Below, in pieces: positions 1,718 through 12,585 of a stretch of 64,000 nt of DNA. The first letter of the stretch is position 1. Every line of letters begins with the position of its first letter. A model generated the notes under the pieces. That model searched no databases. It had not been told where the DNA came from and was given only the letters and a program-made list of their open reading frames with translations. Position numbers and translations under genes: made by a program. Location: positions 1 through 64,000 of IMG/VR virus record IMGVR_UViG_3300042197_003184; one strand, written 5' to 3'. The stretch is from a virus.

Positions 1718-1760
1718 ATTCTACTGCTCTATTATCGGCTTGTCAATAGAGAAAACTTTA
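1718..1760 (-). promoter_or_regulatory. composite sigma70/sigma28-like promoter
   Basis: TTGACA-17-TAGAAT overlapping TAAA-N17-GCCGATAA. Confidence 0.8.
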
Positions 1761-1777
1761 GCAGAAAAGATTTGTTG

Positions 1778-1855
1778 TAAAGTGTTGGTGGGTAAAGACT
1801 TACGTCAAACGGGGCCGCGAGCCCTCGCCCTAAGTGCTGCCGTAGCAACAACTTA
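1778..1855. repeat. Bipartite dyad element R2
   Basis: dyads at 1778-1802 and 1831-1855, 53-bp period. Confidence 0.95.
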
Positions 1856-1880
1856 GGGTTAGGGTTTCGAGAAAGAGAGA

Positions 1881-2294
1881 TCAGCAGAAGAAACTAGCCA
1901 CCTTCGGACTCTTGAACAGAGTACCAGCAAGGATAGGCTTTCGGCAATTCACTGCACGTTCACAGTAGAACTGTCGAATTTTACCATCCACAGTCTGACA
2001 CGTTACCAGATGATTAGTACGCTTGAACTGAGGATCGTTTCTACGATAGTTACTACGTCGGTTCATCAGTTTGATCCAAGTAGAATCCAGCGTAGCAACA
2101 GGCTCGATAACCTTAGCCAGATACCTTTCTGGCTCACCATTCAACGGTTGGAGATATTCAAAGTTGAAGACATCACCAACCTTAGCATTCGACAACGAAG
2201 TCCTAGAACCACCATAGATGGCATAGAACAGAAAGCCAGCAAAGCCAGCAGCAACAACAGCAAACAAACCACCAAGCACAATCCAATCAGTCAT
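1881..2294 (-). CDS. membrane-anchored hypothetical protein
   Basis: N-terminal hydrophobic helix; own promoter. Confidence 0.8.
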   Translation of the reverse strand: MTDWIVLGGLFAVVAAGFAGFLFYAIYGGSRTSLSNAKVGDVFNFEYLQPLNGEPERYLAKVIEPVATLDSTWIKLMNRRSNYRRNDPQFKRTNHLVTCQTVDGKIRQFYCERAVNCRKPILAGTLFKSPKVASFFC

Positions 2295-2332
2295 ACTAAA
2301 CCCTTTCGTTTGAAAATCCTAAATCTACAACC

Positions 2333-2360
2333 AGTCTACCACAATTTTTCTGTCTGTCAA
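2333..2360 (-). promoter_or_regulatory. sigma70-type promoter
   Basis: TTGACA-16-TAGACT. Confidence 0.7.
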
Positions 2361-2683
2361 GGGGAGATCACCATTCCGCTATAGAACGGATATTCGTTAC
2401 GACTACCATGGGCGGTAGGCACCTGCACATACCATTCATGATTACGCTGGCGAACCTTGAACGGGCTATACTGGTTGATACGATCCTTAGTGGTGGCGGT
2501 CTGCCATCCCCCATTGCTCAGTGTATACGTACCATCCTCGTGGATGCGAACCACACACGTACTATGCAGAGTGATTCCGACCGAGCCATCTGGCAGGATT
2601 TCCGCATAGGTATTGTTTCCAACCTTGCGACGAGTACGATAAGAAATACCCTTAACCATCTTAACCGCTTCAGCGTGTGTCAT
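2357..2683 (-). CDS. hypothetical early protein
   Basis: GWQTATTKDRIN motif; promoter upstream. Confidence 0.8.
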   Translation of the reverse strand: MTHAEAVKMVKGISYRTRRKVGNNTYAEILPDGSVGITLHSTCVVRIHEDGTYTLSNGGWQTATTKDRINQYSPFKVRQRNHEWYVQVPTAHGSRNEYPFYSGMVISP

Positions 2684-2707
2684 ATTCTTTTCCCTTTCGT
2701 TTCACTA

Positions 2708-2748
2708 AGTCTACATCTATTATCGGCACCTGTCAAGAGAAATCTTTA
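2708..2748 (-). promoter_or_regulatory. composite sigma70/sigma28-like promoter
   Basis: TTGACA-17-TAGACT overlapping TAAA-N17-GCCGATAA. Confidence 0.8.
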
Positions 2749-2767
2749 GAAAAATCTTTTTGTGTCG

Positions 2768-2845
2768 TAAAGTATTGAGGGATAAAGACTTACGTCAAAC
2801 GGGGCCGCGAGCCCTCACCCTAAGTGCTTTCGCACAAAGGGTTTA
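2768..2845. repeat. Bipartite dyad element R3
   Basis: dyads at 2768-2792 and 2821-2845; linker nearly identical to R2. Confidence 0.95.
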
Positions 2846-2854
2846 GGGCAAGAT

Positions 2855-3085
2855 TCACTCAAAGTCTACAAACACCACCTGAGCATAGCCGCGAGGCTTT
2901 AGGGTCAAACTATCTCCCCAGTTCTCAGTTTCGCAACGAACCCCGGTCAATCCGGCCAGTTCCTTGGCACGACGCACAATGCTACGTTGAGATTCTGGAT
3001 TCTTTGGCAGAAACTCATAACGATTCACCCAGCCATAATTAGCCTCACCACCAAACGTATCAGTCTGAGTCACAACACACTTCAT
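2855..3085 (-). CDS. hypothetical early protein
   Basis: TDTFGGEANYGWV motif; AAGGA SD. Confidence 0.8.
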   Translation of the reverse strand: MKCVVTQTDTFGGEANYGWVNRYEFLPKNPESQRSIVRRAKELAGLTGVRCETENWGDSLTLKPRGYAQVVFVDFE

Positions 3086-3086
3086 C

Positions 3087-3158
3087 TTACTTTCCTTTCT
3101 TTTCGTTCATTTGAACCACAATTCGAACAATTCGAGGAATACAATCTTCAGTCTTCAT
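3087..3158 (-). CDS. 23-aa micropeptide
   Basis: GAGGTG SD; MKTEDCIPRIVRIVVQMNEKKGK; coupled to neighbouring ORFs. Confidence 0.45.
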   Translation of the reverse strand: MKTEDCIPRIVRIVVQMNEKKGK

Positions 3159-3258
3159 CGTTCACCTCTTGGGTTGGAGCAAATACTAGGTCGCTTACCA
3201 GATACGATCCAATTATACCACAAACCACACCCAGAGTAAAGACCACATAAGGCTCCAT
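3148..3258 (-). CDS. 36-aa single-TM micropeptide
   Basis: AAGGAGG SD; MEPYVVFTLGVVCGIIGSYLVSDLVFAPTQEVNDED. Confidence 0.6.
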   Translation of the reverse strand: MEPYVVFTLGVVCGIIGSYLVSDLVFAPTQEVNDED

Positions 3259-3268
3259 TTTTCCCTCC

Positions 3269-3343
3269 TTAGATCAGAATAGCCATCACACACCCAGCCA
3301 CAAAACAAACCCCAAATAAAATCATCTCCTTAGGCCCAATCAT
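3269..3343 (-). CDS. 24-aa single-TM micropeptide
   Basis: AAGGAG SD; MIGPKEMILFGVCFVAGCVMAILI. Confidence 0.55.
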   Translation of the reverse strand: MIGPKEMILFGVCFVAGCVMAILI

Positions 3344-3424
3344 ATCCGATCTCCTTGTGGTTGTCAATCCCTATATCTATTATCGGCCAAATCCACCCAT
3401 AAGATCAAATAATTTTTCTTTCTG

Positions 3425-3502
3425 CAAAACGTTGTGAGATAAGGACTTAGGAACAATTTGTGCGGCCCGCCTCGCCCTAAGTTCTTTAGGGACAAGGCTT
3501 TA
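3425..3502. repeat. Bipartite dyad element R4
   Basis: dyads at 3425-3449 and 3478-3502. Confidence 0.9.
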
Positions 3503-3504
3503 GG

Positions 3505-3711
3505 TTAAGAAAGTACGTTGTCTGTACTAAATGAACACACGTTCAGTCCACTAGCCGCAGTGATAATATCAAACATTTTTCCGATATGCTCCTGTCGTTC
3601 CAGCGGTGTGCTCATATCATGCTCAGGAATATCTAGTACATACTCTTGAGTCAGGGGAATTTCTTCGAACTTTTCATTCTCTACTTTGATGTCATAGAAT
3701 CGGTGCAACAT
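3505..3711 (-). CDS. hypothetical early protein
   Basis: start overlaps upstream stop. Confidence 0.7.
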   Translation of the reverse strand: MLHRFYDIKVENEKFEEIPLTQEYVLDIPEHDMSTPLERQEHIGKMFDIITAASGLNVCSFSTDNVLS

Positions 3712-4109
3712 TAGAAACTCTCCGTAAAGTCAGCACTAATACCCATCTGTTCCCGAACGTCCGGGTCAGTAAGTGTATCCTCATCCATCATAAAGTCAAG
3801 GTCATCGAAAAAGATTTCCAACTCAGGCTCACCCTCATAAATCATGATTTTTGCAAAATCGTACAACATGAAATATGTCGTAGCCTGCACCCACGACTGA
3901 ACCACATTAGAATGAAGTTCGATTGTGTGCCGATTATTATAGACATACTCTATAGCGGAGCACTTAGTATTATCGCTCATCGTGCTCCATACCGGAATAC
4001 GATCATTGTACTTATTCAGTTCATACGACAATTCATTATGGTTCTTCCAGTCTTTATAATTCTCATACGTTGCTTCGATCATACCCTGTGCTATATTACG
4101 ATAGTACAT
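3711..4109 (-). CDS. hypothetical early protein
   Basis: coupled ORF with acidic C-terminus. Confidence 0.75.
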   Translation of the reverse strand: MYYRNIAQGMIEATYENYKDWKNHNELSYELNKYNDRIPVWSTMSDNTKCSAIEYVYNNRHTIELHSNVVQSWVQATTYFMLYDFAKIMIYEGEPELEIFFDDLDFMMDEDTLTDPDVREQMGISADFTESF

Positions 4110-4366
4110 CAGTAGTCCTCCCCATAGTAGCCGTAATCCTCATCGGTTCCAAATCCAGCATCTCGCATGGCACTGTCGAAATCCCCATCCATGCTATCAT
4201 CGACATCATTGTCCCAAACATCATCTTCCTCGTTTTCATCATAATCCTCATCCCAACTATCAAATTCATTCCAAGCGTTCTCGTCGTGGAAATCGTTGTA
4301 ATCGTCGTAGTTCATATCGTTTTCGTAAGAGTTATCGGGATCGAACAGGGGGTCAGGGTGACTCAT
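4109..4366 (-). CDS. extremely acidic protein (DNA-mimic candidate)
   Basis: 34 of 85 residues D/E, one R, no K; AAGGA SD. Confidence 0.75.
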   Translation of the reverse strand: MSHPDPLFDPDNSYENDMNYDDYNDFHDENAWNEFDSWDEDYDENEEDDVWDNDVDDSMDGDFDSAMRDAGFGTDEDYGYYGEDY

Positions 4367-4387
4367 GTGCTATTCCTTTCTCTAGTG

Positions 4388-4423
4388 TTATCGACATTCT
4401 ACACATAGAACTTGAGTTGTCAA
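4388..4423 (-). promoter_or_regulatory. composite sigma70/sigma28-like promoter
   Basis: TTGACA-16-TAGAAT plus TCAA-N16-GTCGATAA. Confidence 0.75.
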
Positions 4424-4453
4424 GCAAAAAAACACAAAAATAATTTCGTTTCG

Positions 4454-4531
4454 TAAACTGTTGATACGTAACGACTTACGACGAGCCGGGCCGCGGCGCC
4501 TCGCTCTAAGTTCTTTAGTAGCAAGGCTTTG
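4454..4531. repeat. Bipartite dyad element R5
   Basis: dyads at 4454-4478 and 4507-4531; 4454-4466 is an exact IHF consensus match on the minus strand. Confidence 0.95.
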
Positions 4532-4534
4532 CGT

Positions 4535-4780
4535 TCAATCTCCAAACGGGTTGTCGTCACCGTAACTTACGTATCCCACAGCCTCGTCCGCATGGAAGTC
4601 TTCGCGGTAATTATCTGACATAAAAACAACATCGGGTTCGATCTCGTCGCTCACCCCCACAACATCGGCCCAATCGTAGAAATCCGTTTGGATATTAGGA
4701 TCGTCAATCGGCTCGATCATGCCGTCGTCCACCATCTCGGCCAGAATCCGGTTAACATCATCAAAATCGTTCAGCATCAT
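4535..4780 (-). CDS. acidic hypothetical protein
   Basis: AAGGAG SD before ATG at 4780; D/E-rich. Confidence 0.7.
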   Translation of the reverse strand: MMLNDFDDVNRILAEMVDDGMIEPIDDPNIQTDFYDWADVVGVSDEIEPDVVFMSDNYREDFHADEAVGYVSYGDDNPFGD

Positions 4781-4842
4781 CTTCTCCTTGTGAAGTTCAC
4801 CAACGAACGCCATCATACTGGGAAAGTGATTCATGTCAACAC

Positions 4843-5106
4843 CTAAATTTGAGCCCAAGCCCTAAAACTTTGAGCAGAGGAACAGAACGCCATATCGTCC
4901 GAATCTCCACCGTAACCTTTGATTGTTTGAGCATACCAGATATATCCGCCCATCTCCCCCAACACTTCACGAAACCACCCGCTACCATCTTTTTTCGCGT
5001 AGGCTTCACCAACAAAAACCTTTGCTCTACTATTGAGCCAAATAATATCCCCGGTTTTCGTACCCAACATCGCCATAGCCTTTTGAACTTCCGATTTCGT
5101 AGACAT
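4843..5106 (-). CDS. hypothetical early protein
   Basis: AAGGAG SD and promoter upstream. Confidence 0.8.
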   Translation of the reverse strand: MSTKSEVQKAMAMLGTKTGDIIWLNSRAKVFVGEAYAKKDGSGWFREVLGEMGGYIWYAQTIKGYGGDSDDMAFCSSAQSFRAWAQI

Positions 5107-5118
5107 ACCTTGCTCCTT

Positions 5119-5155
5119 ATATCGTCATTCTACGCCTATAAAATCTACTTGTCAA
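5119..5155 (-). promoter_or_regulatory. composite sigma70/sigma28-like promoter
   Basis: TTGACA-17-TAGAAT followed by GACGATAT. Confidence 0.75.
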
Positions 5156-5318
5156 TAGTCTTTTGAAAAACAGTATCCAAATAAATCTCTCTATTCGTCA
5201 CAACCCACCCATATTCCGCTTCTGGAGTATAAACCCCAACATACAGTTTTCCACCATCCACACCCTCAAACCCCACACCATATCCTACCATACTAGCCAT
5301 CAAAAGTATACTGAACAT
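5145..5318 (-). CDS. 57-aa hypothetical protein (absent from ORF track)
   Basis: AAGGAG SD; MFSILLMASMVGYGVGFEG...IDK; preceded by TGAA-N16-GCCGATAT/TATAAT. Confidence 0.65.
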   Translation of the reverse strand: MFSILLMASMVGYGVGFEGVDGGKLYVGVYTPEAEYGWVVTNREIYLDTVFQKTIDK

Positions 5319-5384
5319 CCTTTTTCTCCTTAGATATTATATCGGCCAACCCCACCAATATCTTCACTTAAAAATCACAGAATA

Positions 5385-5462
5385 TAAACCCCTATCCTGC
5401 AACAACTTACGTTAAACGGGGCCGCGAGATTTTGACCTAAGTCCTTATGGGTCAATGACTTA
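5385..5462. repeat. Bipartite dyad element R6
   Basis: dyads at 5385-5409 and 5438-5462. Confidence 0.9.
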
Positions 5463-5471
5463 CGCTGACTA

Positions 5472-5502
5472 GCTGACTATCGCCATCAAGCCGGAGGCTT
5501 AG
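5472..5502. repeat. GCTGACTAT plus GNA-triloop hairpin motif, copy 2
   Basis: AAGCC-GGA-GGCTTag. Confidence 0.7.
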
Positions 5503-5514
5503 GTGAAACAATGT

Positions 5515-5901
5515 TCATCCATCACCCCTCCATGAGAAGGGGCTGATCTCCTCGCCATGAGACATGATAGCGGCATACTGTTCGGCCAGAGCCTCGACAC
5601 GCTCACGACTACCCCGTTTCCCGACCTTGATAATCATCGTATCCTCACCCCCCACAATTCGGGGATCGGCCTTCTCTGCCTTGCTCTTGCCCAATCGCCG
5701 CAATGCCTTGCGATTGAACTTCATAACCTTTTCGGTTACAAGGTATCTCTTATGGCCATCCACCCCATAGACATAGAAAGCGTCTTCGCCTTCTATCGCC
5801 CTATCGTCCGGGATCTCAACCAGATCGACCGTCGCCATACCAAGGAAACACATACGGGCTTGAATCTTGGCGTTTTCGATGATAGCGTACTTGGTTTTCA
5901 T
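5515..5901 (-). CDS. hypothetical early protein
   Basis: 128-aa ORF with purine-rich leader. Confidence 0.75.
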   Translation of the reverse strand: MKTKYAIIENAKIQARMCFLGMATVDLVEIPDDRAIEGEDAFYVYGVDGHKRYLVTEKVMKFNRKALRRLGKSKAEKADPRIVGGEDTMIIKVGKRGSRERVEALAEQYAAIMSHGEEISPFSWRGDG

Positions 5902-5948
5902 AGTTCTCTCTTTCTGTGTGTCAAAGGATACCGGTTTCGGTCAGACTA

Positions 5949-6137
5949 TCAACCCCCACAATCGAGGGAGGACAGATACTCTTGATTGTAGAAAACTACA
6001 TCCTCAAGATCCTCAATCTGACGATAGATTTGCGACCTAACGCTAGACGGCATACCATCATCCAGCATATCACGAAGATCGGTAATCTTCCGCATAGCCC
6101 AACTCGTTTCGTTCATTACTTTCTGTCGCTCGGTCAT
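5949..6137 (-). CDS. hypothetical early protein
   Basis: directly downstream of a promoter. Confidence 0.75.
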   Translation of the reverse strand: MTERQKVMNETSWAMRKITDLRDMLDDGMPSSVRSQIYRQIEDLEDVVFYNQEYLSSLDCGG

Positions 6138-6161
6138 CTTATTCTCTCTTTCTTTTCTCTT

Positions 6162-6189
6162 ATTCTACATATAGTTATCGTCGCGTCAA
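6162..6189 (-). promoter_or_regulatory. composite sigma70/sigma28-like promoter
   Basis: TTGACG-16-TAGAAT with GACGATAA in spacer. Confidence 0.75.
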
Positions 6190-6222
6190 TAAAAAAAAAT
6201 GAGGAAAAAGAAAAATATTTTT

Positions 6223-6238
6223 TGGTACAGTATTTGCT
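6223..6238 (+). promoter_or_regulatory. sigma54 (-24/-12) box
   Basis: TGGTACAGTATTTGCT, GG-N10-GC. Confidence 0.7.
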
Positions 6239-6248
6239 ATGATCGTTG

Positions 6249-6326
6249 TAAGTTGTTGATACATAAGCACTTACGTCAAATTCGCGGGCGCCTTGTTGTT
6301 GTAAGTCTTTATGTAGTAAGGGTTTA
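6249..6326. repeat. Bipartite dyad element R7
   Basis: dyads at 6249-6273 and 6302-6326; 6249-6261 is an exact IHF consensus match on the minus strand. Confidence 0.95.
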
Positions 6327-6363
6327 CGCTGACTATGCCCATATTGCCAAGCCGTAGGCTTAG
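6327..6363. repeat. GCTGACTAT plus GNA-triloop hairpin motif, copy 3
   Basis: AAGCC-GTA-GGCTTag. Confidence 0.7.
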
Positions 6364-6536
6364 CTGATACAGTGTTTCCACCTGAACAGGAGTTCAGTAG
6401 CAGCAGCCCGTATGCCTTCCATCAGCATTTCACGAATAGCCCCCTCCGAAGTGGGGAGTCTCCATTGTGCTTCGTGCAACCATAGTTGAATTGTGCTAGT
6501 GTTCATTTGTTCAAATGTTGGAGAGTAATAGTTCAT
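6360..6536 (-). CDS. hypothetical early protein
   Basis: likely start MNYYSPT after AAAGG. Confidence 0.65.
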   Translation of the reverse strand: MNYYSPTFEQMNTSTIQLWLHEAQWRLPTSEGAIREMLMEGIRAAATELLFRWKHCIS

Positions 6537-6546
6537 ACTTGACCTT

Positions 6547-6747
6547 TCAGTTAGCGGCTTCCATAACATCGAACGACACACACTTGTCAAGATAGATCGA
6601 CCTATACCCTTGCTCGCACTTGACAGTCAACAGGACACGCTCAGTCTCGTGACCTTCACCGGGAGGCATGGAGCGAACCTTGACCACTTCGCCATTCACG
6701 ATTTCGCCATTGTTGTATTCCGCAAACACAAAGTCACCAACATTCAT
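6547..6747 (-). CDS. small beta-barrel-like (SH3/KOW-like) hypothetical protein
   Basis: MNVGDFV...GEVVKV pattern; promoter upstream. Confidence 0.7.
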   Translation of the reverse strand: MNVGDFVFAEYNNGEIVNGEVVKVRSMPPGEGHETERVLLTVKCEQGYRSIYLDKCVSFDVMEAAN

Positions 6748-6772
6748 TTTCTTTCTCTCTTTCTTTGCTCTT

Positions 6773-6800
6773 ATTCTACATATTCATATCGTCAAGTCAA
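6773..6800 (-). promoter_or_regulatory. composite sigma70/sigma28-like promoter
   Basis: TTGACT-16-TAGAAT; TGAA-N16-GACGATAT. Confidence 0.75.
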
Positions 6801-6810
6801 CAAAAAAAAT

Positions 6811-7056
6811 TCAGTAGTACAACCAATCCTTCAGAATATTGCCATTAGCATCAACTTCGATATACTCGCCCTCATCCCCACAAGGGAAAAAGCCTTCAAT
6901 GTATCCGTTCAATCCCTTATGGGCAATGTCGTTTGCCAGAGCTTCGGCGAGCAACTCTCCACCGATGGTAGCAACCCCAACTAACGTATCGGGAGAAGTG
7001 CTATCCGCACCATACAGGAACTCGACCAATTCGTCTCGACTGTTTAGCGTAACCAT
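6811..7056 (-). CDS. acidic hypothetical protein
   Basis: AAGGA SD; promoter upstream. Confidence 0.75.
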   Translation of the reverse strand: MVTLNSRDELVEFLYGADSTSPDTLVGVATIGGELLAEALANDIAHKGLNGYIEGFFPCGDEGEYIEVDANGNILKDWLYY

Positions 7057-7079
7057 TTTTCTTATCCTTCTTTTCTCTT

Positions 7080-7107
7080 AGTCTACATAATATTATCGGC
7101 TTGTCAA
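7080..7107 (-). promoter_or_regulatory. composite sigma70/sigma28-like promoter
   Basis: TTGACA-16-TAGACT with GCCGATAA in spacer. Confidence 0.75.
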
Positions 7108-7139
7108 ACAAAAAAAAATAGAAAAAAGAAAAATATTTT

Positions 7140-7155
7140 TGGCATAGTATTTGCT
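7140..7155 (+). promoter_or_regulatory. sigma54 (-24/-12) box
   Basis: TGGCATAGTATTTGCT. Confidence 0.75.
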
Positions 7156-7165
7156 ATATGCGTCG

Positions 7166-7243
7166 TAAGTCGTTATATATCAAGTACTTACGTCAAATTC
7201 GCGGGCGCGATTTTTTTCTAACTCCTTATGCCACAAGGATTTA
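7166..7243. repeat. Bipartite dyad element R8
   Basis: dyads at 7166-7190 and 7219-7243; TATCAAGTACTTA (7178-7190) is an exact IHF consensus match. Confidence 0.95.
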
Positions 7244-7316
7244 CGTATAGTAGTAGTTTAGGGGGGTGCGTCTAACCCCCCGGTTTAGGTGGTACACCCC
7301 CACTCTAGGTAGTGTA

Positions 7317-7517
7317 CTAGCGTACCCTGTGCATGTATACCCTACTGATACCGCACGATGACACCCCCCAACCGGGGCAGTTCCAAATCCAATCCGGCAA
7401 CCCCTTGGATTGGGGGTGGAAGTATCCGTCAACGTGTAACGTATCGGGATGATTCGGAACCTTTTGAACGTTTAGATTGTATTTTTCCAACGCTACGATC
7501 ATTTGAGATACGCTCAT
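7317..7517 (-). CDS. hypothetical early protein
   Basis: AAGGA SD. Confidence 0.7.
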   Translation of the reverse strand: MSVSQMIVALEKYNLNVQKVPNHPDTLHVDGYFHPQSKGLPDWIWNCPGWGVSSCGISRVYMHRVR

Positions 7518-7574
7518 GATTTTCCTTTTTTTGATGAAAAACTTTTTTACCCTTGAATCGGCCGGTCTATCCCC

Positions 7575-7781
7575 TTACCGGGGGGTAGCCCCGTTTGCTT
7601 TTGCATACCGATACATGGCACGTTCATCTACCATAAACCTTCGAACACCGTTCAAATCCTTGAAATTCCAATGGTAGGTTAGAACGTCTGACTTGACCAT
7701 CCATCGGGCTTCAACGTCCGAAGTCTTTTTCAGCGTATAACCCATTTTATTCAACTCTTTTGCAATCGTTTGGCTGTTCAT
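7575..7781 (-). CDS. hypothetical early protein
   Basis: start MNSQTIAKE downstream of promoter 7807-7834. Confidence 0.7.
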   Translation of the reverse strand: MNSQTIAKELNKMGYTLKKTSDVEARWMVKSDVLTYHWNFKDLNGVRRFMVDERAMYRYAKANGATPR

Positions 7782-7806
7782 TTCTTTTCTCTCTTTCTTT
7801 TCACTC

Positions 7807-7846
7807 ATTCTACATACTATATCGTCAACGTCAAGAAAAAAAATTA
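7807..7846 (-). promoter_or_regulatory. composite sigma70/sigma28-like promoter
   Basis: TTGACG-16-TAGAAT; TAAT-N16-GACGATAT. Confidence 0.75.
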
Positions 7847-7866
7847 GGAAAAATCTTTTTCTTTTT

Positions 7867-7882
7867 TGGCATGGGTTTTGCT
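7867..7882 (+). promoter_or_regulatory. sigma54 (-24/-12) box
   Basis: TGGCATGGGTTTTGCT. Confidence 0.75.
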
Positions 7883-7917
7883 GCCCGAGGGGATTAGGTG
7901 AGACTTTCCTATTTTGC

Positions 7918-8121
7918 CTAAATCCTCCATTCGAGAAATTCGAGAGTAAACACCATTCCGGGATACTTATTTCCGATATACTTTTCCGCAGTAGACTTAC
8001 GATTATCGGTAGCCGAAACACACTGGACTACCTTACCATCGGAAATCACTTTCCAAATTCGACGACGACGAATCCGAGGAAGGCTACCGATGAAACTGTT
8101 TACGCTGATTGAAGGTTGCAT
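7918..8121 (-). CDS. basic hypothetical early protein
   Basis: Arg-rich 67-aa ORF after a promoter. Confidence 0.7.
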   Translation of the reverse strand: MQPSISVNSFIGSLPRIRRRRIWKVISDGKVVQCVSATDNRKSTAEKYIGNKYPGMVFTLEFLEWRI

Positions 8122-8152
8122 TTTCTTTTTCTCTCTTTCTTTCTTACTCTTT

Positions 8153-8188
8153 ATATCGACATTCTACATTCAAAACTTTACTTGTCAA
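8153..8188 (-). promoter_or_regulatory. composite sigma70/sigma28-like promoter
   Basis: TTGACA-16-TAGAAT; TAAAGTTT-N12-GTCGATAT. Confidence 0.8.
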
Positions 8189-8204
8189 GAAAAGAAAATC
8201 AGAA

Positions 8205-8414
8205 TCATGAAACCCCCATCCAATCGGCATTTTCGATACAATAATCGTAAAACATATCGTTCAACACTTCAACATAGTTGGAATCCGTCAACCGACGACG
8301 CTGCATGGTGGATTCACACTCTGCAAAAAACTTTCCGTTTTCTTCCACAATCTTGCAATTGTGCCATTCGTCGCCGAAAATTTCCACCATCGTCAAATGA
8401 TACGGGCTAACCAT
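8205..8414 (-). CDS. hypothetical early protein
   Basis: start MVSPYHLT downstream of promoter 8446-8473. Confidence 0.7.
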   Translation of the reverse strand: MVSPYHLTMVEIFGDEWHNCKIVEENGKFFAECESTMQRRRLTDSNYVEVLNDMFYDYCIENADWMGVS

Positions 8415-8445
8415 TTTTCTACTCTCTCTTTCTTTCTTTTCAATC

Positions 8446-8473
8446 ATTCTACATATAGTATCGTCGGTTGCAA
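8446..8473 (-). promoter_or_regulatory. composite sigma70/sigma28-like promoter
   Basis: TTGCAA-16-TAGAAT with GACGATAC in spacer. Confidence 0.7.
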
Positions 8474-8505
8474 GAAAAAAAATCAGAAAAAAAGAAAAAA
8501 TTTTT

Positions 8506-9080: not shown

Positions 9081-10688
9081 TTATCTCCTTACTATTCCAT
9101 TCCATCCTACGCTAGTTTGTCCAGAGATAGGATCGAATACTACTATTTGTATATTATTATTTCCTCTCTTAAGCCAATTACGATTCAAAGATATATTGAA
9201 TCCATGATACCCTGAACCAACTACAGGAACCAGGTTCTGTTTGTATTTATTAGCTAACTGCCCAGTTACCACCCTTCCGTTTATAACTACCCTCACTACC
9301 ACAGGCGAAGATCCCGATCTTTCGCTAAAGGCCCATCCGGACACCCTGTTTTTACTTAAAAACCCAACTCTTACCACAGGGGGTGCGATTTTGATAGTCG
9401 TAGTTCCTATGGTGTTCCACAACCCGCTCTGAAGGTCTCTGGCCTTAATTTCTATAATATGGTCGCCAATAACCAAACCTCCTAAATTAAACCTCCAAAC
9501 TCCGCCGACCCCAGTAACAAGATCCCCCTTTTCTGAGCCATTTATAATTAATTTTACGCTTATTGGACTATTACTAAAATCAGGATCATTAGCCCACCCA
9601 CCAACGGTTTTGAGATCTTGAAAAGTTATAGCTCCTATCGGAACGTGATTACTATCATAAGGTATATTCAAAACATTACAAACCGCTGCTGCTATATTCA
9701 GTTTGCCACCAGAAGCTACCTTACCAAATAATTCTGGTATTCTATCGACCGAAGAAAAAATAGCTTCTTTCACTTCTGATATAGATAGGCTCGGTTTAAT
9801 AGCTTTTAATAAAGCAACCGCCCCAGCAACCTGAGGCGCTGCCATACTAGTTCCGCTCATATATCCATAGTTGTTGTATGGGATCGTAGAGTATATTATG
9901 GATCCTGGAGCAGCTAAATCTACAGTAGTAGCCCCATAGTTAGAAAAACCCACCAAGCCATTAGAGTAACTACTCAAAGCTCCCACACTAATAATATTAG
10001 GACTATCATAACAGCTAGGATATCTTAAAGTAATATCATTATCGCTTCCATTATTACCCGCAGCTACGGTTAATATCACGCCATCATTATTTAATTGATT
10101 GATCGCTCCATACAACATATTACTAAAACCAGTCCCCCCACCCCAACTAGCATTTGCGACAACGACATTAACCCCATAAGTGTTTTTCATCATACTTATG
10201 TAACTCATAGCATTAGCAGCCGCCCCAGTATATCCCATCCCCTGTTCGTCTGTAAATTTTAATGTCATCAAACTAACATTCCAATTAATTCCCGCAACCC
10301 CCCAAGCATTGTTCCCTTCTGCTCCAATTACGCCAGCAATATGAGTGCCGTGTCCATATCTATCTTGAATATCATTATTGTTAGAATAAAAATTCCATCC
10401 ATGAATATCGTCTATATATCCATTGCCTTCATTGTCTATACCATCTCCGGCTATTTCTCCACTATTTGTCCATAGGTTACCTATCAGGTCCTGATGATTC
10501 AAATCTATCCCACTATCTATAATAGCGACAACAACATCTCTTGATCCCCTAGAATAATCCCAAGCCCCAAAAGCGCTCATATTACGAAGAGCCCATTGAT
10601 TATTAATTAGCGGATCATTAGGAGCTGTTGATAATAGTTTTTTATTTTCTAAATGTTCTATGCCTAACGAGAAAACTTTTTTGTTCAT
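9081..10688 (-). CDS. S8 subtilisin-family serine protease with planctomycete-type N-terminal signal
   Basis: IIDSG, HGTHIAG, AAGN, GTSMAAP; N-terminal LGIEHLENKKLLS. Confidence 0.93.
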   Translation of the reverse strand: MNKKVFSLGIEHLENKKLLSTAPNDPLINNQWALRNMSAFGAWDYSRGSRDVVVAIIDSGIDLNHQDLIGNLWTNSGEIAGDGIDNEGNGYIDDIHGWNFYSNNNDIQDRYGHGTHIAGVIGAEGNNAWGVAGINWNVSLMTLKFTDEQGMGYTGAAANAMSYISMMKNTYGVNVVVANASWGGGTGFSNMLYGAINQLNNDGVILTVAAGNNGSDNDITLRYPSCYDSPNIISVGALSSYSNGLVGFSNYGATTVDLAAPGSIIYSTIPYNNYGYMSGTSMAAPQVAGAVALLKAIKPSLSISEVKEAIFSSVDRIPELFGKVASGGKLNIAAAVCNVLNIPYDSNHVPIGAITFQDLKTVGGWANDPDFSNSPISVKLIINGSEKGDLVTGVGGVWRFNLGGLVIGDHIIEIKARDLQSGLWNTIGTTTIKIAPPVVRVGFLSKNRVSGWAFSERSGSSPVVVRVVINGRVVTGQLANKYKQNLVPVVGSGYHGFNISLNRNWLKRGNNNIQIVVFDPISGQTSVGWNGIVRR

Positions 10689-10773
10689 ATCAGCTTCCTT
10701 GCTTTGATTTTATGACAGAATTTCAGACAACACCCTGAAACTATCAGAAAAATCTTAGAAGTCAAGAAACATC

Positions 10774-12585
10774 TTATTCGACTGTTACGCTTTTAGCTAA
10801 ATTTCTAGGCTTATCAACATTCTTATTTCTTAATATTGCAGAATAATACGAGAATAGCTGCAAAGGAACCACAGAAACCAAAGGACTCAAAGCATCGCAT
10901 ACACTAGGTACTCTTATTTTATAATCGCCCAGATCTCCATAATTGGAATATATTCCAATAACTTTGCCATCTCTGGCTTGAATCTCTTTTATATTATTGA
11001 TTATTTTATTATGATTCTCATAGTTATTAGCAACCACAACAACAGGCATGTTTCTATCTATCAAAGCAATAGGACCATGTTTCATTTCAGCAGCAGGATA
11101 TCCTTCAGCATGAACATAGCTAATTTCTTTTAGTTTAAGAGCCCCCTCTAAAGCCACAGGAAAATTATATCCACGCCCCAAGAACAAACAATTCGTCATA
11201 GAAACAAACTCTTCAGCCACAAACTCCACAACATCACAACATCCCAGAGTGTCTTGTAAAATATTTGGCAAATCACGCAAATCGTCCATAATAGCTTTTC
11301 TATAATCGACAGATATAACCCCATCTATCTGCTCAATCCACAAAGCCAACAACAACAGACAAATCACCTGATTAGTAAAAGTCTTGGTACTAGCCACACC
11401 AACCTCCACCCCGCTTCTTAAATGAATTCCACAGTTGGTTAGCTTGCTCATACTAGAACTCACAACATTACATATACCAACAGTAATTGCTCCATAAATC
11501 TTAGCAATCTCCAAAGCCCCCAGAGTATCAGCAGTTTCCCCACTCTGACTAACCCCTATGACAATATCCCCCTCGTTGATCACAGGCTTTCGATATCTAA
11601 ACTCACTAGCATACTCCACACTCACTTTTATCTTACAAAGCTCTTCAATATAATACTTAGCCAGTAAAGAAGCGTGCCAAGAAGACCCACAACTTACTAT
11701 AGTAATATGATTCGCTTTTTTAAATATATTCTCATATCCTATCAGTCCCCCTAATTTAACCCTGTACCCATCTAGTCGTCCACTCAAACAATCATGTACC
11801 GTTTTGGGTTGTTCGTATATCTCCTTTAGCATATAACTATCAAAATCACCCTTATTGATCTTTAATACTTTACTATAGACCTTTTCAATTTCATAGTCTA
11901 TTTCTATTCCTTTGCTCATATCAAACACTTCCAGTCTGTCTTTCACCTCAACAACAACATTATCTTCCAGATAAACCACACCCACACTAGCTCTATCACC
12001 AAAAGCCCCCACATCACTAGCTACCATAGTCTCATTCACCCCAAACCCAACAACCAAAGGACTTCCTTTTCTAGCAGCTATCATTTGGCCAGTTTCCCCA
12101 TCTAATATTACTATAGCATAGGCCCCTATTACTTTTTCTAAAGACGATTTGATACCATCAATTAATGACCCTTTAATTTTGGTTTGATGATATATTAGGT
12201 ACAACAATACTTCAGAATCAGTATCACTAACAAAACTATATTCGGATAGCTCTTTCTTTAGATCTTCGTAATTTTCGATAATACCATTATGTGCTATTGC
12301 TAGTTTATTATCGTTCGTAACATGAGGATGAGAATTTCTTTTACAAGGCTTACCATGAGTGGCCCATCTGGTGTGTCCAATAGCGCTATAGGTTTCTATA
12401 TCAGGATTTTTGATTTTTTGCCTTAGATCTTCAATACTACCGGTTTGTTTGGTAGTAATCATATTATTCCCAACTATATAGCTAATTCCGGCACTATCAT
12501 AGCCCCTATACTCTAAACTTTGCAAACCATCTAAAATAAAAGACAAGCATTTGCTTTGTCCCTTATAGGCCACTATCCCACACAT
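10774..12585 (-). CDS. glmS: glutamine--fructose-6-phosphate aminotransferase
   Basis: MCGIV, LEYRGYDSAG, GHTRWATHG, SQSGETAD, PRNLAKSVTVE. Confidence 0.98.
   Translation of the reverse strand: MCGIVAYKGQSKCLSFILDGLQSLEYRGYDSAGISYIVGNNMITTKQTGSIEDLRQKIKNPDIETYSAIGHTRWATHGKPCKRNSHPHVTNDNKLAIAHNGIIENYEDLKKELSEYSFVSDTDSEVLLYLIYHQTKIKGSLIDGIKSSLEKVIGAYAIVILDGETGQMIAARKGSPLVVGFGVNETMVASDVGAFGDRASVGVVYLEDNVVVEVKDRLEVFDMSKGIEIDYEIEKVYSKVLKINKGDFDSYMLKEIYEQPKTVHDCLSGRLDGYRVKLGGLIGYENIFKKANHITIVSCGSSWHASLLAKYYIEELCKIKVSVEYASEFRYRKPVINEGDIVIGVSQSGETADTLGALEIAKIYGAITVGICNVVSSSMSKLTNCGIHLRSGVEVGVASTKTFTNQVICLLLLALWIEQIDGVISVDYRKAIMDDLRDLPNILQDTLGCCDVVEFVAEEFVSMTNCLFLGRGYNFPVALEGALKLKEISYVHAEGYPAAEMKHGPIALIDRNMPVVVVANNYENHNKIINNIKEIQARDGKVIGIYSNYGDLGDYKIRVPSVCDALSPLVSVVPLQLFSYYSAILRNKNVDKPRNLAKSVTVE

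Follow-up and report, generated by a model that had tools for sequence, protein, structure and literature searches.

The first 64 kb (64,000 nucleotides; here, the window) of a 139,964-bp viral contig (G000; IMG/VR record IMGVR_UViG_3300042197_003184; completeness about 94%) contains a block of small minus-strand early genes, which extends between 0.1 and about 8.5 kb and whose sigma70-type promoters are interleaved with a second, two-part signal. As judged from its pattern of conservation in sequence, this signal, yT[AC]AAGWWT-N12/13-G[CT]CGATA[AT], is an autonomous bipartite element. The explanation favored here, by a modest step past an even chance, is that each CGATA box forms the -10 half of a promoter of the sigma28 class (FliA/SigD/WhiG), interdigitated with the housekeeping promoters and read by a sigma28-family sigma factor of the host.

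All twelve copies of the octamer G[ACT]CGATA[ATC] that the original prediction had listed were recovered at their positions, every one on the minus strand (Table 1), and the 13 near-consensus minus-strand sigma70-type promoters that it had claimed (TTGACA/TTGCAA-N16/17-TAGAAT/TAGACT/TATACT) are also present, in about that number. Two more octamers absent from the earlier list, at 4892 and 8562, both lie outside promoters. The window as a whole contains 30 matches to the octamer, compared with 11.6 +/- 3.7 in shuffled sequences (0 of 100 shuffles reached 30), and of the 47 matches in the whole genome, 14 are minus-strand copies within the first 10 kb. The octamers had been placed either in the sigma70 spacer or just past the -10 box, which is correct for ten of the twelve but not for those at 5339 and 3380, which are outside any TTGACA/TAGAAT promoter. 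Seven sites have the octamer in the spacer, with a -35-like box upstream in the UP-element zone (register A); in the three others the -35-like box is in the spacer and the octamer abuts the -10 hexamer, lying over the discriminator and start site (register B).

The best match to TAAAGTTT is found 12 or 13 nt (N12 or N13) upstream of all twelve octamers and at N11 or N14 in none. This upstream box scores eight of eight positions at 8173-8180 and 1753-1760 and seven of eight at 2741-2748, is TCAAG or TGAAG at two sites, and is T-rich with four to six matching positions at seven. The claim that TAAA, TCAA, TGAA, or TAAT precedes most copies held for the spacing in every case, but a good T[ACG]AAG box accompanies only five of the twelve. 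In the window, T[ACG]AAG-N17/18-CGATA occurs five times, compared with about 0.8 expected. Statistics confined to the window are thus modest, and the weight of the evidence comes from related phages.

Relatives were collected by a DNA pattern scan of IMG/VR, which yielded 45 loci, 33 of them with the same promoters clustered on one strand; a protein search for relatives with the open reading frame (ORF) at 10774-12585 found none. The relatives contain 159 unique TTGNNN-N16/17-TAGAMT promoters, in which CGATA starts 13 or 12 nt before the -10 hexamer (98 promoters), 2 nt past it (26), in both places (2), or in neither (33). After removal of the promoters that match the search pattern, an unbiased set of 128 from 34 related viral contigs was left, and 95 of these (74%) have CGATA at index -13/-12 or +8, counted from the -10 hexamer, compared with 1.6% and 0.7% per promoter in shuffles. 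The two CGATA positions are 20 to 21 bp apart, or two helical turns. Although they had not been selected for it, 25 of the 26 register B promoters carry T[AC]AAG within the sigma70 spacer and separated from the octamer by 12 or 13 nt, and a box of the same T[AC]AAG type lies upstream of TTGACA in register A. With the 551 promoter-strand CGATA sites as reference, T[ACG]AAG occurs 69 times at N12 and 75 times at N13 and at most four times at any other spacing from 6 to 19; on the opposite strand of the same 551 sites, it does not occur at N12 or N13 at all.

The resulting family consensus is yT[AC]AAGWWT-N12/13-G[CT]CGATA[AT]wA. In the family matrix, for which CGATA itself was the search anchor, the two positions before CGATA are G in 80% and C or T in 87%, respectively, and the position after it is A or T in 89%. 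In each of 36 loci, the motifs (152 in all) keep to a single strand, and a start codon follows at a median distance of 27 nt. Four complete relatives (150 to 223 kb) contain 56 forward-sense copies clustered on the early-region strand; the reversed patterns used as a control gave 10 copies, counted over these four genomes and G000 together. Conservation of the bipartite motif thus spans a broad clade of lake phages. Two promoters in the relatives (L004 3291, minus strand, and L029 5921, plus strand of the locus) carry the octamer in both registers at once, with GGCCGATAA in the spacer and GTCGATAA past the -10 hexamer.

Several properties set the second signal apart from the sigma70 boxes around it. 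In register A, the upstream box stands at only two distances from CGATA (standard deviation, 0.48), compared with standard deviations of 0.78 and 0.80 for its distances to the sigma70 -35 and -10 hexamers, and the partial distances compensate each other (r = -0.80). The upstream box thus tracks CGATA rather than TTGACA and cannot be a plain UP element. Both boxes are rich in information, and the bases between them carry about 0 bits. Among 154 unique bipartite motifs, the gap between the boxes encloses the sigma70 -35 hexamer in 85, the -10 hexamer in 44, and neither in about 22. Some of these 22 are chance matches inside genes, and others form conserved groups, directly 5' of the same small membrane-protein genes in five and in three phages. 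The copy at 5339 in the window has stand-alone homologs in L013 and L032, a second stand-alone group is found in L004, L010, L015, L016, and L040, and a further one stands in tandem before another promoter. The register also differs between phages for orthologous early genes: the promoters at 6773-6813 and 2708-2748 are in register A here, whereas their orthologs are in register B in L006 and L036 and in L004 and L016, respectively. Such switching indicates that selection keeps both signals and not one arrangement of them. The fixed N12/13 spacing, the two registers, and the stand-alone copies together argue that the element is autonomous.

Both boxes match the sigma28 consensus, TAAAGTTT-N11-GCCGATAA (PMC2859248). 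Class 3 flagellar promoters of Escherichia coli and Salmonella, read by FliA, and of Bacillus subtilis, read by SigD, have the same octamers, including tolerated G[ACT]CGATAA variants; the E. coli FliA sites found by chromatin immunoprecipitation sequencing (ChIP-seq) include GACGATAA, GTCGATAA, and ACCGATAA, all of which align at N11 (PMC4183435). Like these promoters, the phage element is bipartite, asymmetric, and pointed toward a gene. It differs from them in having A or C at position 2 of the -35 box, in being nested in a strong sigma70 promoter, and in belonging to the early region of a phage and not to motility genes. The original prediction had put the spacing at 1 to 2 nt longer than in E. 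coli, and this is what was found (N12/13 rather than N11). Lineage-specific spacings of this kind have been published for sigma28 promoters of Actinomycetota (PMC12871210) and Chlamydia (PMC8762339). Actinobacterial WhiG2 recognizes T(A/C)AA-N16-GCCGATAA and WhiG1 recognizes CTCA-N16-17-GCCGAACT (PMC12871210, published as PMC13595943); the phage motif, written as T[AC]AA-N16/17-G[CT]CGATA[AT], has the same spacing, the same choice of A or C, and the same -10 box as the WhiG2 promoter. The degenerate consensus TAAAGWWY-N11/12-RYCGAWRN, given for Chlamydia and E. coli (Yu et al. 2006, in the form in which it is cited in PMC8762339), also accommodates the phage boxes (R in 91%, Y in 87%, then CGA, W, and R) and permits N12, whereas in the phages N13 is as common as N12 and N11 is not enriched. 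At the level of sequence comparison, then, the spacing of the phage element and its A or C at position 2 are within published sigma28-family variation.

Other known signals were also compared with the boxes. Promoters of extracytoplasmic function (ECF, group 4) sigma factors have the form GAAC-N16/17-CGT, with AAC and CGT as hallmarks. Their overall spacing is similar, but the phage -35 box T[AC]AAG has G in place of C and the -10 box CGATA has A in place of T, and this assignment was rejected. A DnaA box was rejected since the reverse complement, TTATCGGC, lacks CACA, and the sigma32 -10 box (CCCCAT) was ruled out on invariant bases. An UP element (alpha-CTD site) was rejected for the upstream box, which in register B lies inside the spacer. 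Strohl reportedly described, in 1992, a Streptomyces-type -10 hexamer of the form TAGRRT, which the phage TAGAAT/TAGACT hexamers resemble.

If the element is a sigma28-class promoter, a holoenzyme with the primary sigma factor of the host and one with its sigma28-family factor would each be able to occupy the same stretch of about 60 bp and initiate one and the same early mRNA. The sigma28-type start would lie 7 nt past the last base of the octamer, so that, measured from the sigma70-type start, a second 5' end would be expected about 13 to 14 nt upstream in register A and about 8 nt downstream in register B. Since the footprints overlap, the two enzymes would compete, as has been proposed for overlapping sites at E. 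coli flagellar promoters (PMC4183435). The net effect would be to secure or boost early expression in cells with an active sigma28-family factor. Of the dual-sigma reading put forward in the original prediction, the two-box sigma28-like architecture interleaved with sigma70-type early promoters stands at the level of sequence and comparison, and the sigma28-family reader is retained as a prediction from it.

A number of observations weigh against such a reader. The window copies that lack a good T[ACG]AAG box have T-rich upstream sequences that would be unremarkable in a T-rich UP region, the E. coli N11 spacing is represented by only 3 sites in the comparison that gave 69 at N12 and 75 at N13, and the sigma70 boxes are already near consensus, so that the gain from a second reader is not evident. 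The phage also encodes a divergent ECF-like sigma factor of its own (Table 1), to which no other promoter can be assigned with confidence and whose gene is present in all four complete relatives as well (39 to 62% identity). This protein matches Pfam Sigma70_r2 at threshold, with no region 4 recognized by Pfam, and has weak ECF-superfamily similarity; its match to the FliA_WhiG model TIGR02479 has an E value of 0.08. It belongs to a family of more than 1,500 metagenome members, some annotated as sigma-24 family, and the four cysteines of its Cys4 insert (C107, C110, C124, and C133) are invariant. An AlphaFold model (pLDDT 67) renders the sigma2 domain with confidence, leaves the Cys4 insert disordered, and ends in a C-terminal domain of three helices. 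Foldseek matched it only to sigma factors, with SigI and ECF sigmaH first, WhiG at rank 40, and FliA at rank 46, all with weak E values; sequence searches of the PDB with it returned nothing informative.

The phage sigma factor might itself read the bipartite element, which would then be a middle-mode promoter laid over the early promoters, used first by host sigma70 and later by the phage-sigma holoenzyme. Middle promoters are placed in early regions in T4 and SPO1. This alternative is considered improbable. It would account for the co-occurrence of the gene with the element in this phage and in all four complete relatives, for the size of the family, and for a fold whose best structural matches are all sigma factors, a sigma2 domain joined to a helical C-terminal domain; the N12/13 spacing, too, differs from that of the well-studied host sigma28 factors. 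The protein is, however, ECF- or SigI-like rather than sigma28-like, whereas the boxes agree with the sigma28 consensus at every defined position and are without the ECF hallmarks AAC and CGT. Moreover, a search for the sigma28-like motif before the late genes of this phage, where a phage sigma factor would be expected to act, found none. Late intergenic gaps of G000 instead contain strand-consistent copies of (G/A)GTGTAT, and the exact form GGTGTATA is co-oriented with the genes in nine of nine cases, which makes (G/A)GTGTAT a candidate late promoter of this phage. Exact GGTGTATA is not enriched in the four complete relatives, so it offers no basis for assigning the phage sigma factor a role of its own, and the failure to confirm a clear late motif in the relatives favors, to that extent, the phage sigma factor as reader of the bipartite element.

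Two further alternatives dispense with a second sigma factor. The boxes might be an operator for a DNA-binding regulator of phage or host origin, seated on the promoter core and shutting off or modulating early transcription. Both registers overlap the sigma70 core, in the spacer or at the start site, where repressors act; they are two helical turns apart and so on the same face of the DNA; and one early ORF has a weak match to a helix-turn-helix family (Fe_dep_repress, E = 0.0015). Little credence is nevertheless given to an operator, whose recognition would not require a -35/-10-like spacing to be kept as the element shifts against the sigma70 boxes. The halves of the element differ from each other, forming neither a palindrome nor a direct repeat, are strictly co-oriented with transcription, coincide in both cases with a known sigma consensus, and occur without a sigma70 promoter directly 5' of conserved genes. 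Dissimilar, oriented halves with -35/-10-like spacing that are able to stand alone point to a promoter rather than an operator. It is very improbable that the boxes have no separate function and reflect the shared ancestry of duplicated promoter cassettes, with the upstream box serving as an UP element. The early promoters are indeed repeated modules flanked by repeated dyads, the register A upstream boxes occupy an A/T-rich, UP-like zone, and the statistics of the window by itself are modest. Common descent of cassettes does not readily explain why information is concentrated in the boxes, why the pair occurs in two registers and alone, why the register B box lies inside the spacer, where an UP element is impossible, or why orthologs switch register yet retain both signals; the pair also persists in relatives with only about 40% identity in the sigma gene. 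By box information, tracking of CGATA, spacing, and register switching, this last alternative already appears largely refuted.

Two known concepts come nearest to the favored sigma28-class promoter: tandem sigma70/FliA promoters in E. coli flagellar operons (PMC4183435) and CtrA boxes in alphaproteobacterial phages (PMC9437464). The dual promoters of fliA, fliL, fliD, and flgM likewise open one gene to two holoenzymes, but they are arranged in tandem and their sigma70 member needs the activator FlhDC, whereas the phage promoters interdigitate box by box and their sigma70 part is near consensus. In pili- and flagellotropic alphaproteobacterial phages, CtrA boxes wire the promoters of virulent phages to a host motility or cell-cycle factor ("lytic deferment"), and these sites, like those described here, gather in one region of the genome and recur across phage lineages. 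Whereas CtrA, a response regulator, binds an operator, the phage signal described here resembles a complete alternative promoter.

Early promoters of phages are a textbook case of pure housekeeping-sigma promoters, and full-text literature searches turned up no paper in which sigma28-family promoters serve the early genes of a phage. A tentative and rather doubtful extension is that a large, abundant clade of uncultured freshwater phages has built box-by-box dual promoters for the primary and sigma28-family sigma factors of its hosts, coupling first transcription to host state. The activity of a sigma28-family factor of the FliA/WhiG type would report motility, cell-cycle, or c-di-GMP (cyclic di-GMP) state. 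If this were true, virulent phages could spread their risk over two host holoenzymes or tie their first transcription to a motile or developmental state, the spacing T[AC]AA-N16/17-GCCGATA could serve as a sequence fingerprint of the host clade and a handle on the hosts of uncultured phages, and the promoters would provide a natural design for compact dual-sigma promoters.

Clues to the host are limited to leads. Megablast and short blastn comparisons of the early promoters with cultured phages gave chance matches only, TerL shares 24% identity with proteins of Bacillus and Microcystis phages, and DnaE is 28 to 32% identical to proteins of many unrelated phages. The best Gmd homologs are all on phage-sized contigs. 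Contigs with composite promoters (L047 to L052) were found in six metagenome-assembled genomes (MAGs), assigned to Gammaproteobacteria, Methanobacteriota, Bacteroidales, Aggregatilineales, Methylococcaceae, and Bacteroidia; six lineages for six MAGs indicate binning noise or phage contamination and are not host evidence. Among the five of these MAGs that were searched, one (G002) has a true FliA; no flagellin was found in it, and its three non-phage motif matches are not at flagellar genes. No WhiB gene was found in this phage or the four complete relatives. Planctopirus has a fliA gene thought to be cell-cycle regulated (PMC11958385), and the published actinobacterial WhiG consensus (PMC12871210) fits the phage motif, although no evidence places the host in Actinomycetota. 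The idea in the original prediction that the phage infects the motile swimmer stage of a dimorphic planctomycete gained no support from these comparisons. A planctomycete or an actinobacterial host can be named as leads only.

Table 1. Promoter-associated and related features of the phage, numbered from the first base of contig G000; N12 and N13 give the gap between the two sigma28-like boxes
Feature	Position	Strand	Details
Composite, register A	8446-8485	minus	TTGCAA 8468-8473, TAGAAT 8446-8451, GACGATAC 8458-8465, weak TGATTTTT 8478-8485, N12
Composite, register B	8153-8188	minus	TTGACA 8183-8188, TAGAAT 8161-8166, TAAAGTTT 8173-8180, GTCGATAT 8153-8160, N12; best sigma28 match in the window
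Composite, register A	7807-7846	minus	TTGACG 7829-7834, TAGAAT 7807-7812, GACGATAT 7819-7826, TAATTTTT 7839-7846, N12
Composite, register A	7080-7120	minus	TTGACA 7102-7107, TAGACT 7080-7085, GCCGATAA 7093-7100, weak TATTTTTT 7113-7120, N12
Composite, register A	6773-6813	minus	TTGACT 6795-6800, TAGAAT 6773-6778, GACGATAT 6786-6793, TGAATTTT 6806-6813, N12
Composite, register A	6162-6202	minus	TTGACG 6184-6189, TAGAAT 6162-6167, GACGATAA 6175-6182, weak TCATTTTT 6195-6202, N12
Stand-alone sigma28-like promoter	5339-5366	minus	TGAAGATA-N12-GCCGATAT, without a TTGACA/TAGAAT pair; 20 nt upstream of small membrane-protein gene 5145-5318
Composite, register B	5119-5155	minus	TTGACA 5150-5155, TAGAAT 5127-5132, GACGATAT 5119-5126, weak TAGATTTT 5140-5147, N13
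Composite, register B	4388-4423	minus	TTGACA 4418-4423, TAGAAT 4396-4401, TCAAGTTC 4408-4415 in spacer, GTCGATAA 4388-4395, N12
Tandem, not nested	3380-3407	minus	GCCGATAA 3380-3387, poor -35-like TGATCTTA (4/8), 12 nt upstream of TTGACA 3362-3367; weakest of the twelve sites
Composite, register A	2708-2748	minus	TTGACA 2731-2736, TAGACT 2708-2713, GCCGATAA 2720-2727, TAAAGATT 2741-2748, N13
Composite, register A	1718-1760	minus	TTGACA 1741-1746, TAGAAT 1718-1723, GCCGATAA 1732-1739, TAAAGTTT 1753-1760, N13; both sigma28 octamers perfect
Class C, sigma70-type without second signal	2333-2360	minus	A-tract spacer, CCCC directly upstream
Class C	1200-1227	minus	
Class C	631-659	minus	
Divergent ECF-like phage sigma	13430-14140	plus	Sigma region 2, Cys4 insert, three-helix C-terminal domain
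Late-gap motifs, GGTGTATA / (G/A)GTGTAT	15907, 21510, 24727, 31745	plus	
Late-gap motifs, GGTGTATA / (G/A)GTGTAT	102998, 106937, 112793, 126310, 127677	minus	
Dyad elements	1-100, 1790-1870, 2770-2855, 3430-3515, 4450-4535, 6230-6350, 7170-7260	minus	

Some early promoters, here termed class C, are of the sigma70 type without the second signal. Their spacers contain GAAAAAGTTT and no CGATA, the near-variants CGATG and CGATC occur in such spacers, and a CCCC...GGGG hairpin adjoins the -35 hexamer, which is often TTGACG. Class C promoters are also found in the relatives (L003 3996, L012 2670, L016 5276 and 6135, L017 12554, and L021 2456), and their retention suggests a differently regulated subset of promoters.

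Beyond the early block, the genome continues with three larger minus-strand genes (GNAT, subtilase, and amidotransferase-like), a structural module on the plus strand from 13.4 to 79.4 kb, and minus-strand replication and fiber modules that encode a DnaE-type polymerase, DnaB, primase, SSB, PhoH, and RNR. No close cultured phage was found, and the 64-kb window contained no tRNA genes. The two largest adjoining ORFs of the replication module (G000 86203-87918 and 88380-90005, minus strand; L057:7203-8918 and 9380-11005) encode 571 and 541 amino acids, with an ORF of 124 amino acids between them. The module has Pfam matches to DnaE-type polymerase III alpha domains (PHP, NTPase, finger, HHH, and OB), which are probably split between the two large ORFs, and the 541-amino-acid ORF matches phage DnaE genes.

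Conserved GC-rich dyads of about 80 bp, with the core CTTAGGGCGAGG..CGCGGCCCCGTTTGACGTAAG, stand on the minus strand just 5' of most early promoters and are probably terminators or processing sites that delimit single-gene units. Many early leaders (minus strand; 8120-8150, 7785-7805, 6750-6770, and 6140-6160) are purine-only (AAGAAAGAGAGAAAAGAA) in place of a GGAGG Shine-Dalgarno sequence; AAGGAG is used by other early genes of the same region. The TAGAAT hexamer is directly adjoined by ATG (conserved TATGTAGAAT), for example, at 8446-8454, 7807-7815, and 6162-6170, which puts TG at -14/-13 in these early promoters, one nt away from the canonical extended -10. A very acidic early protein encoded at 4109-4366 on the minus strand (MSHPDPLFDPDNSYE..., rich in D, E, Y, and N) is conserved in at least 12 related phages and may be a DNA mimic or a protein of the anti-restriction type.

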